From a virus (taxonomy: Duplodnaviria; Heunggongvirae; Uroviricota; Caudoviricetes), in IMG/VR virus record IMGVR_UViG_2648501437_000013: a DNA stretch of 34,339 nt; one strand, written 5' to 3'. Below are positions 112-32,391 of the stretch, in pieces; position 1 is the first letter of the stretch; every line of letters begins with the position of its first letter. A program made the translations under genes and the position numbers. The notes below the pieces were generated by a model. It had not been told where the DNA came from and did not search any database. It saw only the letters and a program-made list of their open reading frames with translations.

Positions 112-705
112 TTACCACTTGTTATAAACAAAACCAATATCTTTCTTGTGAGGCATATCTGCTGCTGAAAAAGCTGCGATCTTCGCGAGTCGATCACATA
201 TTTCATTTTCACGATGCCCGGCGTGACCTTTAACCCACTTCCAGCGAACATTATGTCGACTTGCGGCCTCATCCAGACGCTTCCACAGATCAACATTCTT
301 TACCGGTTTTTTGTCAGAAGTCATCCATCCATTGCGTTTCCACCATTTCATCCACTGTGTCATGCCGTTTTTCAGATACTGGCTATCAGAGTGTAAAATA
401 ACGTTGCATGGATATTTCAAACGCTCCAGCCCGATAAGTGCCCCCATCATCTCCATGCGGTTATTGGTGGTGCTATGAAAACCATCTGAGAACTCGCGTT
501 CCTCTCCACGATACTGAAGAACGATACCGTAACCGCCCGGGCCACCCGGATTTTTAAGGCAAGAGCCATCACTGAAGATTTTCACGGTTTTAAGCTGGGG
601 ATTGAACTCTACGACAGGCGTTGTGGGATTGGTGCGGGGAGAATTTTTGTTTTTGGCTTTTTTGCGAGTTTTTGCTTGCGATCGGGCTGGTGTCTTCGTC
701 GTCAT
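112..705 (-). CDS. rnhA: Ribonuclease HI (RNase H), with ~40-aa Lys/Arg-rich N-terminal extension
   Basis: Translation shows RNase HI hallmarks (SDGSC...[19 protein letters not shown], [15 protein letters not shown]). Start moved from track 759 to ATG at 703-705, which is preceded by CAGGAG 5 nt upstream. Confidence 0.85.
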
Positions 706-1289
706 ATAAACTCCTGAATCAAGCGCCGCGCCGATTTTTTTCCTCGCGCGTGCGCACACGCGTGCGTGTTAATAATTATTAAAATAAACAAATTACTTCC
801 CAGAACAGGTTTTTATAAACCTGAACTGAACGAACGAAGTGAGTGAAGTTCACCTCGAACGAAGTGAGAGGTTGTCTTTTCAGGTAATACTCTCCCAGGG
901 AGGTGAGTATAAAAATCCCTCACCAACCTGGTCGTTTCATAACCTGAAAAGTTATGGTCTAAGTCTACTGCCAGCTTAGACTTGGGAAGTTATGGATGAC
1001 AGCACCCCAGAACCGAGATCTTCCCACACTTTATGAAGGGGAGTACTGGATTCAACCTCTCGAAACACCCCAGACTCGACAATCATAAAGTGACCCTTGT
1101 CTCCGCTCACTTTGGTTCCCCCTTCCCCGACACCTAAACGGCACCGGTTCTACGCTGGTAGTGAACTTTTTTAAACCTGACGCCAGTGACGCTTACCCCC
1201 ACCCATCAGGTCGAGTCTCCAGTCTACGACTGGAAACTATCAGATCTTAGCACTTACAATTCATCTTATGAATAGTTTGTACTTATCTA

Positions 1290-1520
1290 TCATTTCGATT
1301 GATTATTTTCTCGACCATGTAGTTGAACATTCAAGGCAAACACCTCGTTGATCAACTCACCTAAAAGCTGTTCAACAAGTTCGCGATGCTCCCCAAGATG
1401 CAAGCACTTAATTGCCCATTCGTACAAGTTGAAAGCCTGCTCGCGATCTTTCATCATTTCACGAGCCTTAGCCAGAAAATCGCTCTCTACGAGCGCAACA
1501 ACATTGGTCGGGTATGGCAT
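1290..1520 (-). CDS. Hypothetical protein (76 aa)
   Basis: Intact ORF, AAGGAAAA-type RBS upstream of ATG, same strand as flanking operons. No recognisable motif. Confidence 0.4.
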   Translation of the reverse strand: MPYPTNVVALVESDFLAKAREMMKDREQAFNLYEWAIKCLHLGEHRELVEQLLGELINEVFALNVQLHGRENNQSK

Positions 1521-1705: not shown

Positions 1706-2299
1706 CTAAGCAGCCTTCTTTGATGGTCTTTTTTTCCTGACCACATTCGCAGGATCATACCCTCCCAGACTTTTCATGACGTCCAAAGGGATCTTGCTTA
1801 TAGAGTGCCCAGCGTCCTGACAGAATCCTCGAAAAACAACGAGCATACTGCCACCGGGGTTGATGTTTACTTCTACCTGACCCAAATTGACGTCAGGCTC
1901 GACAAACGCTACGCGGCCACCAGACAGAATAATCGTCTCATTCGCATACTCTGTTGCACGCTCATACCACTTTGTATCGAGGGATTGAGGAATTAGAATC
2001 ACTGTTGTAACTCCGCGAGCCTGCTCACGTATAGCAGCATCAATCCAGGGGGAGATTTTGGAGTAGGGTGGATTGAGGAAGGCAATTGTACCTGGCTGTC
2101 CCCATTCAGATTTCAAAGCATCACGCTCAATGCCTATGAAATTAGGCAGCTTTGCGTTGTCCTTGTTGCAGGCAACGTCAACATCAAATGTCACTCCAAG
2201 ATAACGTTGAATGGCAGAAAACAGCCAATCAGGTGTTCTCCAGAGGTCACGAAGAGAGTTGTCGCGCTTTCGCTGTTTGATTTTTTCGGCTGCAATCAT
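1706..2299 (-). CDS. DNA N6-adenine methyltransferase, phage Dam family
   Basis: WRTPDWLF, FDVDVACN and FLNPPYS motifs typical of the phage N6-adenine MTase family (NPPY catalytic motif). Confidence 0.8.
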   Translation of the reverse strand: MIAAEKIKQRKRDNSLRDLWRTPDWLFSAIQRYLGVTFDVDVACNKDNAKLPNFIGIERDALKSEWGQPGTIAFLNPPYSKISPWIDAAIREQARGVTTVILIPQSLDTKWYERATEYANETIILSGGRVAFVEPDVNLGQVEVNINPGGSMLVVFRGFCQDAGHSISKIPLDVMKSLGGYDPANVVRKKRPSKKAA

Positions 2300-3450: not shown

Positions 3451-3998
3451 TACACAATTTCAGAGGGTAATTTAAAAAATCCGTACTTATTACGTGCCTT
3501 AAAGAAGCATTGCATCATTAAGTTTGTGTCATATAAGGCACTATGTGCTTTGGCATGATCGTATATAAAGCCAAGAGAGAAGGCCAACTCTTCAAGGCGG
3601 GGACGTTTACCGTCTTCTGTGGCCCACAGGGAAAATAGAGTGTCAATCAATGGGATGTCTGGAAGCGAAAAACCGTAACTTTTCAGCTCATGCCTAATAA
3701 ACGGAATATCGAACGCTTCGCCGTTGTGGGCTATCCAAATATCGGAAGAAGAGAGATACGAAGCGACAGATGAAGCGTGATCGGCTAGTAACGGCTCGGC
3801 GGCTAAATCTTCAAGACTGATGCCGTGTACCGCTTGCGCTTTCGGATCGATACTGCGACGCGGGTTGAACCGCATTACAAAACTATCAACCATTGTCTGT
3901 GTCTCAATTTCGTACTTCACCATTGCGATTTCAATGATTTTATGGCCTGAGAGGAAATCAAGACCTGTTGATTCGATGTCCACCCCTGTAGCAATCAC
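3450..3998 (-). CDS. DnaQ-like DEDDh 3'-5' exonuclease (Pol III epsilon-like proofreading exonuclease)
   Basis: Exo I (VDIESTGL), Exo II (HNGEAFDIPF) and Exo III (HSALYD) motifs in canonical order. Confidence 0.75.
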   Translation of the reverse strand: MIATGVDIESTGLDFLSGHKIIEIAMVKYEIETQTMVDSFVMRFNPRRSIDPKAQAVHGISLEDLAAEPLLADHASSVASYLSSSDIWIAHNGEAFDIPFIRHELKSYGFSLPDIPLIDTLFSLWATEDGKRPRLEELAFSLGFIYDHAKAHSALYDTNLMMQCFFKARNKYGFFKLPSEIV

Positions 3999-4789
3999 TT
4001 TTTATCTCCTTTTACTGGTCGTTTGGACGGTGTGAAGATGGCAGCTTCAACATCCCACCCCCTCAAAATTCGCTGCGAGATAATGGTCGCAGTCAAGCCA
4101 ACCTCTCTAGCCCATTCGGTAATTCGCTGAGTTCTGCCGCGACACTCGATCAGACGCTTACTATCTCGGTTGGCATACGTGTCGACGCTGGCGTTAAGCG
4201 CGCGATCTAATGGCCACCCTTTCTTGATTCGATAGTGAAGAGTTGATGTCTGAATCCCGGCTCTTTTAGCCCATTGTGAGAGAGTCAGCTTTTCCCCCTT
4301 ATGCTCCAAAATTAAGTTTGAACGCGTGTTATTGGCCTGTTCTTCAAAAGTCGCCCATCTGCAATTTTCAGGTTCGTAGTCACCATTCACATCTTTGCGA
4401 TCAAGAGACATCCCCTCTGGTCGCTCTCCCATGTCAGCATAAAAGTTTTCAAATATTTGCCACCGCTCGCAGACTTTGATACCTCGGCCGCCATACCACT
4501 TATAGGCGTGATGGGTTGGTTTTTCACATCGTTCCCGCATACCCAGCCATATACGATAAATTGGCGTTTTACTCATACCATGAGGCTTTACGCTACGGCG
4601 ATGTGCGTTGTAGACACAGCCACACGATATTGTCGCCCCGTGATTTAGCTTCCCGTAACTAACCAGGCAGGTGTTGCCGCAATCGCAGATGCAATCCCAA
4701 AGTCGCCCTTGTTTGTTTGAAATACCGGAATATTTAAGTGCAACCAACTTTCCAAAACGTTTACCTGTTATGTCTACCGGTTGTCCCAT
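3995..4789 (-). CDS. HNH-like (degenerate) homing-endonuclease-like DNA-binding protein with N-terminal Cys cluster and two C-terminal HTH-like repeats
   Basis: Cys-rich N-terminus (CICDCG...SCGC); YGGRGIKVCERW and LDRKDVNGDYEPENCRWATFEEQANN resemble the NxRWAT..EN tail of HNH_3-type endonucleases; repeats LTLSQWAKRAGIQTSTLHYRIKKGW and QRITEWAREVGLTATIISQRILRGW look like HTH modules. Function assignment from memory only. Confidence 0.45.
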   Translation of the reverse strand: MGQPVDITGKRFGKLVALKYSGISNKQGRLWDCICDCGNTCLVSYGKLNHGATISCGCVYNAHRRSVKPHGMSKTPIYRIWLGMRERCEKPTHHAYKWYGGRGIKVCERWQIFENFYADMGERPEGMSLDRKDVNGDYEPENCRWATFEEQANNTRSNLILEHKGEKLTLSQWAKRAGIQTSTLHYRIKKGWPLDRALNASVDTYANRDSKRLIECRGRTQRITEWAREVGLTATIISQRILRGWDVEAAIFTPSKRPVKGDKK

Positions 4790-4798
4790 TACTACTCC

Positions 4799-6858: not shown

Positions 6859-7942
6859 GAATCAGAATATCGTCCCATTTGAAATCATCCAGCTCAGACC
6901 ATTCATGAGGGAAAATAACGACCGGATCTGAATGCTCTGGAGCCTGTCGTTTCATTAGCTCACACACACTTTCCATGTGGTTATTGTACAAATGCACGTC
7001 AAAGCCAAAATGCACAAAGGCACCGGCCATGTGACCCGTAATCTTCGCGAGAAAATGAGTGAGAATGCCATAACCAGCAATATTGAATGGCATACCAACA
7101 AAAGTGTCTACGCTACGCTGTACGAGGCAGGAGTTGAGGATGCGTTTGGGGATTCCAAGTTCATCCAGTTCAGCTTCAGTAACACTGCCGTCCATCTCCA
7201 GATCGTATAGCATCTTGGTGTAGATAGACTCGTAACCGAGGCGACTGTGTTGAAGACCAATGTCAGTTGCCATCGTTAAACGGGTTTCAAAATCAAGCTC
7301 ACGACTCCACAAAGAGAAGACAAAGTGGCAAGGTGGCAGTTTCATATCCTCAAGCTCGCCTACGTTCCATGCGTTAAGCATGATGCGACGATCGGTAGGG
7401 TTCGTGCGCAGTGTATCGACAATACGCTGTAGCTGATCGATTTCACGGGACAGCACTACGCGATCTTCACTGATACCTAGGTATCCCTCGACTTTGTACC
7501 CGCGTTCACGGAAAGTAGCGATCTTGCTCAGATATTCACTATGGCTCACGATGCGGGTATCTTCCCATCGACGCCACTGCTTACCGTAAACTGGCCCCAA
7601 ATCGCCATTCTCATCGGCCCATGCATCCCAAATCTTAACGCCGTTATCCTTGAGAAATTGAATGTTACCCGTGCCTTTCAGATACCACTCAAGTTCGACA
7701 AGTAGTGGCTTAAGATTTACCGCCTTTCCAGAAATAAGCGGCACAGTCCCACCAGTAAGCATGTAGTAAGAGGGAACGTAGCAGGTGCTTAAAGTACCAG
7801 TGCCTGTGCGATCATCAGCCTGCACGCCGCTTTTAAGCACCGTCTCAATAACTTTTGCATACGATGCGTTTGTTACCTGACCGTTCGTATGCTCACGATT
7901 CAAAAGGAGTGACACAAAAACCTCACAAAGATAAGTAACCAC
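6812..7942 (-). CDS. thyA: Thymidylate synthase (ThyA) with ~45-aa internal insertion; annotated start uncertain
   Basis: DRTGTGT, LPPCH (catalytic Cys) and QRSVD...MPFNIAGY motifs; insertion between LPPCH and QRS blocks relative to E. coli ThyA; track start (GTG at 7942) lies inside a nested palindrome, so the true start is probably 10-25 codons downstream. Confidence 0.8.
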   Translation of the reverse strand: MVTYLCEVFVSLLLNREHTNGQVTNASYAKVIETVLKSGVQADDRTGTGTLSTCYVPSYYMLTGGTVPLISGKAVNLKPLLVELEWYLKGTGNIQFLKDNGVKIWDAWADENGDLGPVYGKQWRRWEDTRIVSHSEYLSKIATFRERGYKVEGYLGISEDRVVLSREIDQLQRIVDTLRTNPTDRRIMLNAWNVGELEDMKLPPCHFVFSLWSRELDFETRLTMATDIGLQHSRLGYESIYTKMLYDLEMDGSVTEAELDELGIPKRILNSCLVQRSVDTFVGMPFNIAGYGILTHFLAKITGHMAGAFVHFGFDVHLYNNHMESVCELMKRQAPEHSDPVVIFPHEWSELDDFKWDDILILGYDPLPWIKVPVAV

Positions 7943-7958
7943 TTATTCATTGTGTGAG
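7922..7958. promoter_or_regulatory. Nested palindrome CTCACA-aag-ATAAGT-aacc-ACTTAT-tcat-TGTGAG at the thyA operon head
   Basis: Read directly; the inner element belongs to the recurrent ATA(A/G)GTAA...TTAC(C/T)TAT family. Confidence 0.45.
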
Positions 7959-32371: not shown

Positions 32372-32391
32372 ATCGTAAGTGGTTACTTATC
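32372..32391. promoter_or_regulatory. Palindromic motif ATCGTAAGTGGTTACTTATC upstream of the AAA+ ATPase gene
   Basis: Matches the 7931..7946 variant (ATAAGTAACCACTTAT). Confidence 0.4.

Follow-up and report, generated by a model that had tools for sequence, protein, structure and literature searches.

The window analysed here is a 34,339-nt stretch of DNA from IMG/VR virus record IMGVR_UViG_2648501437_000013, assigned to the Caudoviricetes, and we were concerned with a gap free of open reading frames (ORFs) near its start (positions 760-1289) and with the structured RNA that this gap appears to encode. The region of the gap is 97-99% identical to Escherichia phages CMS-2020a, PhiR41_1 and Cyrano and 88% identical to Salmonella phage SSU5, and it matches 689 PLSDB plasmids of approximately 105-120 kb from Klebsiella, Escherichia, Enterobacter, Salmonella, Citrobacter and Cronobacter, including pHCM2 of S. 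Typhi CT18. Because of these phage and plasmid matches, we take the window to be part of an SSU5/pHCM2-type phage-plasmid. The genes around the gap are all on the minus strand and comprise, in order, those for a 3'-5' exonuclease, a 269-aa protein, a Dam methylase (1706..2299) and a 76-aa protein, followed by the gap and then by rnhA, which encodes RNase HI. The initial annotation described the gap as lying between rnhA and the upstream operon, which is correct in the window; rnhA is, however, not a constant neighbour, as other genes take its place in two divergent lineages (L252 and L254).

Our listing of ORFs on both strands between rnhA and the 76-aa gene agrees with the earlier statement that the gap holds none of at least 60 codons. 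The longest had been put at approximately 34 codons, which is too short, as GTG-initiated ORFs of 46 aa (839..979, plus strand) and 44 aa (976..1110, minus strand) are present. A repeat search recovered both the inverted repeats that had been described (1214-1224/1228-1238, 895-907/919-931, 876-888/939-951, 801-812/817-828 and 1027-1036/1083-1092) and the direct repeats, in the form of the exact 13-nt sequence CGAACGAAGTGAG at 831-843 and 856-868. The stretch is also highly structured, as had been proposed: its minimum free energy is -183.9 kcal/mol on the minus strand (z -5.5) and -149.4 kcal/mol on the plus strand (z -4.9), values equalled by 0 of 100 dinucleotide shuffles, and the minus-strand fold is the more stable by 34 kcal/mol. 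The extent of the element proper is better given by a predicted promoter at 1244-1272, an RNA running from approximately 1238 down to approximately 785-793, and a conserved core at approximately 793-1238. Positions 760-790 are an AT-rich spacer, beyond which a separate conserved GC-rich tract occupies 735-775.

To compare conservation of the gap with that of its flanks, we aligned positions 1-2400 of the window with ten relatives from six genera and calculated mean pairwise identity per 50-bp block. Identity was 0.905-0.983 in blocks 851-1200 and 0.888 in block 801-850, dropping again at 1201-1300 and 751-800, and lay at approximately 0.72-0.88 in most blocks of flanking coding sequence (CDS). 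BLAST identity was 83-87% for 700-1350 versus 76-79% for 1-2400. Judged by these comparisons, the non-coding core (91-98% identical among relatives) is clearly better conserved than the surrounding protein genes (approximately 80%). Searches with nhmmer found the element in approximately 150 IMG/VR loci retrieved via rnhA or the 76-aa protein, which yielded 65 distinct sequences.

RNAalifold applied to 24 representatives predicted approximately 18 helices, with 131 pairs inside the putative transcript. In this close set 99.2% of cells were standard pairs, a percentage that is inflated, like those given below, by predicting the structure on the same alignment, so that two-sided changes and controls with slid partners (37-49% paired) are more telling. 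Fourteen pairs changed on both sides, compared with 8.8 ± 1.3 in shuffles (0/500), a signal limited by the high identity of the set. A profile search with the 76-aa protein yielded four more divergent lineages with homologues of the element, which scored 366, 174, 159 and 49 bits in nhmmer. In a 12-sequence alignment that includes these distant homologues (A3), 95.6% of cells in 107 predicted pairs were paired (slid controls, 34-48%), 51 of the 107 pairs changed on both sides versus 18.9 ± 3.1 in shuffles (0/500), and the covariation score was 0.346 versus 0.179 in shuffles. Folding combined with comparative alignment, which the initial annotation had suggested as a check, therefore revealed compensatory changes in both sets. 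Among those in A3 were the swaps of UGGGAAG/CUUCCCA for UGGAAGG/CCUUCCA and of UUCAGG/CCUGAA for UUCUGG/CCAGAA, as well as a 5' hairpin whose sequence was wholly changed and whose stem was kept.

The same pairs distinguish the two strands. G·U accounted for 377 of 3138 paired cells (approximately 12%) and would be A·C on the opposite strand; the pairs are 99.2% standard when read on the minus strand versus 87.5% on the plus strand, and independent alifold energies were -152.9 kcal/mol on the minus strand versus -119.4 kcal/mol on the plus strand. These strand-specific G·U pairs and energies place the constraint on a minus-strand transcript, not on duplex DNA. The element has a conserved secondary structure on the minus strand, which is the strand of the genes.

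Support for individual helices varied along the RNA (Table 1). In hairpin P1, two-sided changes were found in 5 of 8 pairs among close relatives and in 6 of 8 when the distant homologues were added; the corresponding figures for P2 were 3 pairs and 7 of 14, and its GGGUGG.GG was invariant in 12 of 12 A3 sequences. As A3 shows, the 5' branched domain carries an insertion of approximately 80 nt in the most distant homologue, L257. Within the central domain, H12/H13 pairs UGGGAAG with CUUCCCA and has an invariant 30-nt loop region, and it is H12 that reads UGGAAGG/CCUUCCA in L254 and L252; the other swap noted above lies in H15 of L252 (A3). Eight of the 10 pairs of H14 change on both sides. The long-range pairing H6/H7 that would close this domain (1093-1103 with 866-872) is invariant in close relatives and predicted only. 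H17 is likewise invariant in close relatives, with two-sided changes in 4 of 9 pairs once distant relatives are included, and the inner stem of H18 covaries, with UA replaced by GC in 6 of 24 representatives.

Table 1. Coordinates of the RNA, its parts and flanking features in the window.
Feature	Position	Strand	Remarks
Upstream 76-aa gene, PHROG 5343 ("unknown function")	1290..1520	minus	sole constant neighbour of the RNA locus
-35-like hexamer TTCATA	1267..1272	minus	17 bp 5' of the -10
Extended -10 TGcTAAGAT	1244..1252	minus	hexamer 1249-1244
Structured non-coding RNA gene, ~450 nt	785..1238	minus	putative 5' end ~7 nt after the -10; core ends ~793, candidate 3' end 785-793
P1, 5'-terminal hairpin	1215..1237	minus	sequence variable, pairing constant
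P2, hairpin with invariant GGGUGGnGG / CnCUGGC	1174..1212	minus	covariation
5' branched domain, H3 enclosing H4 and H5	1105..1166	minus	helices 3 and 4 with 4 two-sided pairs each (A3)
Central multi-helix domain	866..1103	minus	H8-H11, 1027-1092; H12/H13, 983-1026; H14, 957-981; H15/H16 long hairpin, 876-951
H17, hairpin from the second 13-nt repeat copy (CGAGGUGA / UCACUUCG)	831..861	minus	
3' region: H18 (799-830), invariant CUGGGAAGUAA (793-803), U-rich tail	780..830	minus	possible 3' end of the RNA; lacks the form of a canonical terminator
Conserved downstream element: alternating purine-pyrimidine GC tract, CGCGAGG, A7	735..775	minus	membership in the unit tentative
rnhA (RNase HI with basic N-terminal extension)	112..705	minus	Pfam RNase_H 9.9e-45; downstream neighbour in the window, context only

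Upstream of P1 lies a candidate sigma-70 promoter that, on the evidence of the alignments, is conserved. All 24 representatives share the TT of the -35 (1272-1271) and the four fixed bases (T, A, A, T) of TAnnAT while the middle bases and flanks vary, and TGn precedes the -10 hexamer in most lineages. Relatives have TTTAAA, TTTACA or TTTACT as the -35 at the same spacing, and the distant homologues have TTTACC-17-TGcTAACAT, TTCTAA-17-TGaTAAACT and TTTACT-17-TATGAT, with TGtTAACAT as a further extended -10. In both L004 (TTTAAA-17-TAAAAT with TG) and L257, a consensus promoter scan picks up the site on the RNA strand; the window's own promoter scores 8/12, just under the scan threshold. Initiation approximately 7 nt past the -10 would place the covarying P1 at the very 5' end of the RNA. 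Scans of four homologues, the window included, detected no canonical intrinsic terminator on the RNA strand.

Evidence of transcription comes from Cyrano, which is carried by E. coli LF82, is 97% identical to the window in this region, and has a 44-aa CDS, CYRAN_81, inside the RNA (equivalent of 976-1110, minus strand). According to a published re-analysis of LF82 RNA-seq data, few Cyrano genes are expressed in the lysogen; CYRAN_81 is one of them, at 12-fold over the prophage background in LB (PMC9928086). In S1 Table of that study its log2 values are 6.8-6.9 in LB overnight and up to 10.3 (maximum 10.35) in macrophages at 6 h, compared with 3.1-5.8 for the upstream 76-aa gene and 2.6-5.0 for rnhA (PMC9928086), so that CYRAN_81 lies 8-40 times above both neighbours in 10 of 10 samples. 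A signal standing this far above both flanking genes is the discrete transcript that the initial annotation had recommended looking for. The CYRAN_81 annotation is also the handle by which expression of the RNA is exposed in published tables.

The initial annotation had left open several micro-ORFs as the content of the gap, an option that comparison does not bear out: of 11 ORFs of 20-46 aa, none is intact in all 65 distinct homologues. Three frames that overlap one another do best, each being intact in 46-47 of the 65, and one of these is the 44-aa CYRAN_81 ORF (46/65). Since overlapping frames are equally often intact, what is conserved is the nucleotide sequence and not a coding frame. The candidate frames are disrupted by indels of 1-2 nt in three lineages, that of Klebsiella and two of the Salmonella type. 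By these comparisons the element is non-coding, and the CYRAN_81 "hypothetical protein" is very likely a spurious CDS call.

The RNA also resisted assignment to known families. A covariance-model search, another of the suggested checks, returned 0 matches at gathering thresholds for the whole window against the 4227 models of Rfam 15, which cover GOLLD, ROOL, HEARO, OLE, 6S, RNase P, tmRNA, group I/II introns, riboswitches, RNAI and Sok among others. At E<=10, positions 650-1400 gave noise only, mainly of the hairpin type, and the distant homologues gave microRNA-hairpin noise only; a whole related plasmid gave tRNAs only, located elsewhere. ARAGORN found 0 tRNA or tmRNA genes in the window. 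No antisense target was apparent, in that no match of at least 14 nt was found on either strand of the 109-kb plasmid pEC881_2 beyond chance-level matches to the AT-rich tail (E>=0.19), and complementarity within the window amounted to six 11-mers versus approximately seven estimated by chance. This lack of extended complementarity in the phage-plasmid makes a classical antisense immunity or copy-control RNA unlikely. A type I toxin-antitoxin (hok/sok-like) mRNA was rejected, because every ORF is broken in some homologue and none is hydrophobic, as was a type III toxin-antitoxin RNA (ToxI-like, with tandem repeats of approximately 36 nt), as only two-copy repeats are present, the largest exact one of 13 nt, with no tandem array. 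Full-text literature searches found no description of this RNA.

Of 5426 complete E. coli genomes, 232 (4%) carry the element; all but two of its occurrences there lie on plasmids of approximately 110 kb, and none is annotated by RefSeq. A degenerate 42-nt central-loop pattern matched 55 metagenome contigs, many labelled human gut, all of which have the full element; complete contigs among these are approximately 105-120 kb. Species-representative genomes contributed two Kluyvera contigs only, both close relatives. As no copies outside SSU5-type phage-plasmids were found in PLSDB, the E. coli genomes, the metagenome contigs or the species representatives, the RNA family appears confined to SSU5/pHCM2-type phage-plasmids in the collections searched.

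Collectively, conservation above that of the flanking genes, covariation, strand-specific G·U pairs, a conserved promoter and a discrete transcript bear out the first of the options raised by the initial annotation, a structured non-coding RNA. Three observations had been named there as speaking against such an RNA, namely poor conservation in relatives, no compensatory changes and no transcript, and none of the three holds. With its own promoter, a discrete transcript, a covarying structure and no coding potential, the ORF-free stretch is very probably an RNA gene. We favour, with less assurance, the reading that it is a stand-alone gene for a new family of structured RNAs of approximately 450 nt that acts in trans via its fold, and not a cis-acting leader. 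The minus strand would be transcribed from the sigma-70 promoter with its TGn-extended -10, starting at approximately 1238, and the RNA would fold into approximately 18 helices, beginning with a 5' hairpin and a second hairpin that is G-rich, continuing through a small branched domain into a large central one with multiple helices, and closing with two hairpins on the 3' side. The transcript would accumulate as a discrete species while the phage-plasmid is carried, dormant, as a plasmid, and may act through its folded shape as a protein-binding or scaffold RNA of the ribonucleoprotein (RNP) type. Candidate roles include lysogeny or plasmid maintenance, host modulation, and defence or anti-defence.

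We favour shape-based action in trans because loops and junctions are invariant as in housekeeping RNAs, because no target is found in the phage-plasmid, and because the downstream gene differs between lineages. In L252 the gene 3' of the RNA encodes a 200-aa DUF7557-like protein and is followed by a Tad2-like gene (L252:4105-4416), in L254 it is a Tad2-like (anti-Thoeris) gene (L254:3598-3912), and in L257 it is again rnhA. This variability argues against an rnhA-specific leader, and the RNA would on these grounds be neither a leader dedicated to rnhA nor an antisense regulator. The presence of Tad2-like (anti-Thoeris sponge) genes beside the RNA in two divergent lineages suggests that the downstream segment is a slot for variable cargo or anti-defence genes.

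Few structured bacterial RNAs of this size combine strong covariation with the lack of a known function, and those described before have opened new biology. GOLLD, ROOL, HEARO, OLE and raiA share with the RNA described here a multi-helix architecture of several hundred nucleotides, covariation, conserved loops and junctions, a phage-like carrier, the absence of coding potential and the lack of a known function; the present RNA does not match their Rfam models even at E<=10, and it differs from them in its narrow host range (SSU5-type phage-plasmids of Enterobacteriaceae) and in not lying beside the tRNA genes of its element. The immunity RNAs c4 of P1/P7, CI of P4 and CB of N15 measure 60-80 nt and act as antisense RNAs on clear complementary targets carried by their own element. 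They are likewise non-coding RNAs of plasmid-prophages or satellites in the lysogenic state, but the RNA here is approximately 450 nt and has no such target of at least 14 nt in the 109-kb relative outside its AT-rich 3' flank. 6S RNA and CsrB/CsrC are abundant trans-acting RNAs that act by shape or protein binding and not by antisense pairing. Their protein-sequestering mode is our preferred working model, although the present RNA lacks a 6S-like mimic of an open promoter, an array of GGA hairpins and an Rfam match.

Several observations weigh against this reading. It is the lack of alternatives, and not positive evidence, that argues for action in trans and for protein binding. The RNA-seq counts span only 135 nt of the RNA and their strand-specificity is unchecked, and the complementarity search covered phage-plasmid sequences, so that short seed pairing with host RNAs was outside its reach. 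An Enterobacter plasmid (L012, NZ_CP090793.1) has an IS3-family element at 1347-2517, directly after the 76-aa gene, in place of the RNA and rnhA; as this plasmid still exists without it, the element is not essential for plasmid survival, at least there. Finally, the RNA lies directly 5' of the downstream genes on the same strand, its 3' end is unmapped and no canonical terminator is recognisable, and a terminated or processed leader is therefore the main rival.

Such a cis-acting leader or attenuator, which we judge unlikely, would consist of the promoter and a long structured 5' leader, usually ended or processed ahead of the next gene, that gates the variable cargo (rnhA, Tad2-like and other genes) by conditional read-through or processive antitermination. 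A terminated leader would give just such a pattern, a short and abundant transcript followed by approximately 12-40 times less signal on the next gene, and a conserved GC-rich element does lie between the RNA and that gene. Two invariant duplicated motifs would also permit alternative pairings, CUCACUUCGUUCG occurring twice around CGAGGUGA and UGGGAAG twice around CUUCCCA, but a switch of this kind is weakened by loss of the 3' copy of UGGGAAG in L254 and L252 (CUGGGUAU). Moreover, no terminator/antiterminator pair is recognisable on the RNA strand, rnhA increases no more than the upstream gene does when the RNA rises, and 450 near-invariant nucleotides far exceed the needs of known leaders or of put/EAR-type elements.

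A replication primer or R-loop origin, comparable to ColE1 RNA II or the T4/T7 origin transcripts, is improbable. Under this reading the RNA would stay hybridised to its template, and cutting by the adjacent phage RNase H would let it prime (lytic) DNA synthesis. Like RNA II, a structured plasmid RNA of approximately 500 nt, it is long and structured, in this window it adjoins an RNase HI gene whose product has all catalytic residues, and it contains the G-rich runs GGGUGGGGG and GGGGAAGGGGG. However, rnhA is not beside the RNA in two subgroups (L252 and L254), the G runs are not conserved in distant homologues, and the locus shows neither a GC-skew switch nor enrichment of DnaA boxes. A RepB-type replicon with DnaA boxes is instead found at 17.4-20.4 kb of the window, approximately 17 kb away, no counterpart of RNA I was found as an Rfam family or as an antisense partner, and the RNA is highly expressed in the non-induced state. 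The variable adjacency of rnhA and the location of the replicon elsewhere thus argue against a ColE1-like primer coupled to RNase H.

Less probable still is a site acting as DNA, that is, a partition, packaging or repressor-binding locus whose repeats bind proteins, an option the initial annotation had also entertained. The many inverted and direct repeats would suit it, as would palindromes of the GGTAAGT..TTACC type in several intergenic regions, including just 5' of the promoter in relatives. Against it, compensatory changes preserve pairing and not sequence, and the G·U pairs, with which one strand alone pairs better, tie the constraint to a single transcript. The locus also yields a discrete transcript and has no iteron-like array, DnaA-box enrichment or skew switch. 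Equally remote is the proposal that one or more small proteins account for the locus, for although one depositor annotated the CYRAN_81 ORF as a CDS in Cyrano and it is transcribed, the indels described above break every candidate frame in those lineages, no candidate has a Shine-Dalgarno-plus-ATG start, and none is hydrophobic as a toxin would be.

The trans-acting RNA that we favour may have a counterpart in a further group of Klebsiella phage-plasmids. There, a "B type" block of approximately 455 nt (L166:3420-3875 in NZ_CP055187.1, also present in L241-L247) lies between the PHROG 5343 gene and rnhA. Identity to the window is 51% for rnhA of this group and 46-54% for its small protein. The block itself, which is 87-96% conserved versus 52-65% for the adjoining rnhA, folds better on the gene strand, has 15 predicted pairs that change on both sides, and gave no Rfam match; it is likely a second novel structured RNA. 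Homology between this block and the RNA of the window was considered and rejected, as none was detected by BLAST, shared k-mers or a central-domain covariance model. Lineage-specific RNAs, each near-invariant within its lineage, thus seem to occupy the locus, and one might speculate that this pattern would suit a specificity determinant. A bolder extension, which we regard as doubtful, is that large lineage-specific functional RNAs have a dedicated slot behind the PHROG 5343 gene, filled by at least two unrelated ones of approximately 450 nt, and that the RNA of the window represents a new RNP-forming, self-assembling or catalytic class, serving the dormant phage-plasmid as a specificity determinant in immunity, incompatibility, or defence and anti-defence. 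This idea fits with the adjoining anti-defence cargo (Tad2-like) and with the rise of the RNA inside macrophages.

Phage-plasmids of the SSU5/pHCM2 type are common in clinical Enterobacteriaceae and can carry resistance genes, and their most conserved non-coding feature is very probably an unannotated, abundantly expressed RNA of approximately 450 nt. The system is tractable: its hosts can be cultured, its phage can be induced, RNA-seq data are already available, and the unrelated Klebsiella RNA at the same locus offers a natural comparison. A role in lysogeny, plasmid maintenance or defence is thus directly testable. An entry in an RNA family database is warranted and would end annotation of the spurious 44-aa "hypothetical protein".

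The GC tract downstream of the RNA (735-775) is perfectly alternating over approximately 24-26 nt and reads CGCGCGTGCGCACACGCGTGCGTG on the plus strand, where CCTCGCG, T7 and a small GC hairpin flank it. The tract lies approximately 20-40 nt past the RNA core and before the next gene in every lineage with the A-type RNA, meaning the RNA of the window, groups free of rnhA included, and was also seen 3' of the RNA in L004, L254, L252, L257 and L256. On the plus strand the element resembles a terminator facing the genes, with a hairpin and a T run (L004), and the alternating tract could adopt the Z-DNA form.

The 76-aa PHROG 5343 product is predicted to be a small three-helix protein (pLDDT 84), and its structure model had no PDB fold match at E<1 and its sequence no Pfam match. 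We therefore dropped this protein as a functional clue, for example as a Rop-like protein, since even a confident model gave no informative fold match. The RNase HI encoded downstream (window 112-759) has an N-terminal extension of approximately 40 aa that is rich in Lys and Arg and absent from E. coli RnhA. The annotated start of rnhA varies among records, at the ATG at 705 or further upstream, giving CDS lengths of 588-669 nt.

Elsewhere in the window, the segment at 3629-4793 does not align with the near-identical plasmid pEC881_2 and is probably a mobile insertion. It contains, beside the 3'-5' exonuclease gene, a 264-aa ORF (3995..4789, minus strand) that, by eye from its sequence, looks like a homing endonuclease of the HNH/AP2 type. 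Palindromes of the GGTAAGT(n)TTACC / TAAGT(n4)ACTTA type occur at 99-116, 2314-2327, 7932-7945 and 32376-32389, compared with 0.0-0.2 expected by chance. They are intergenic, between co-directional early genes, with a degenerate copy at approximately 1270-1285 and one in L004 at approximately 2090-2105, and in relatives a perfect GGTAAGTACTTACC stands immediately 5' of the -35 of the RNA promoter. A phage regulator may use these palindromes as operators, or they may form RNA hairpins between cistrons.

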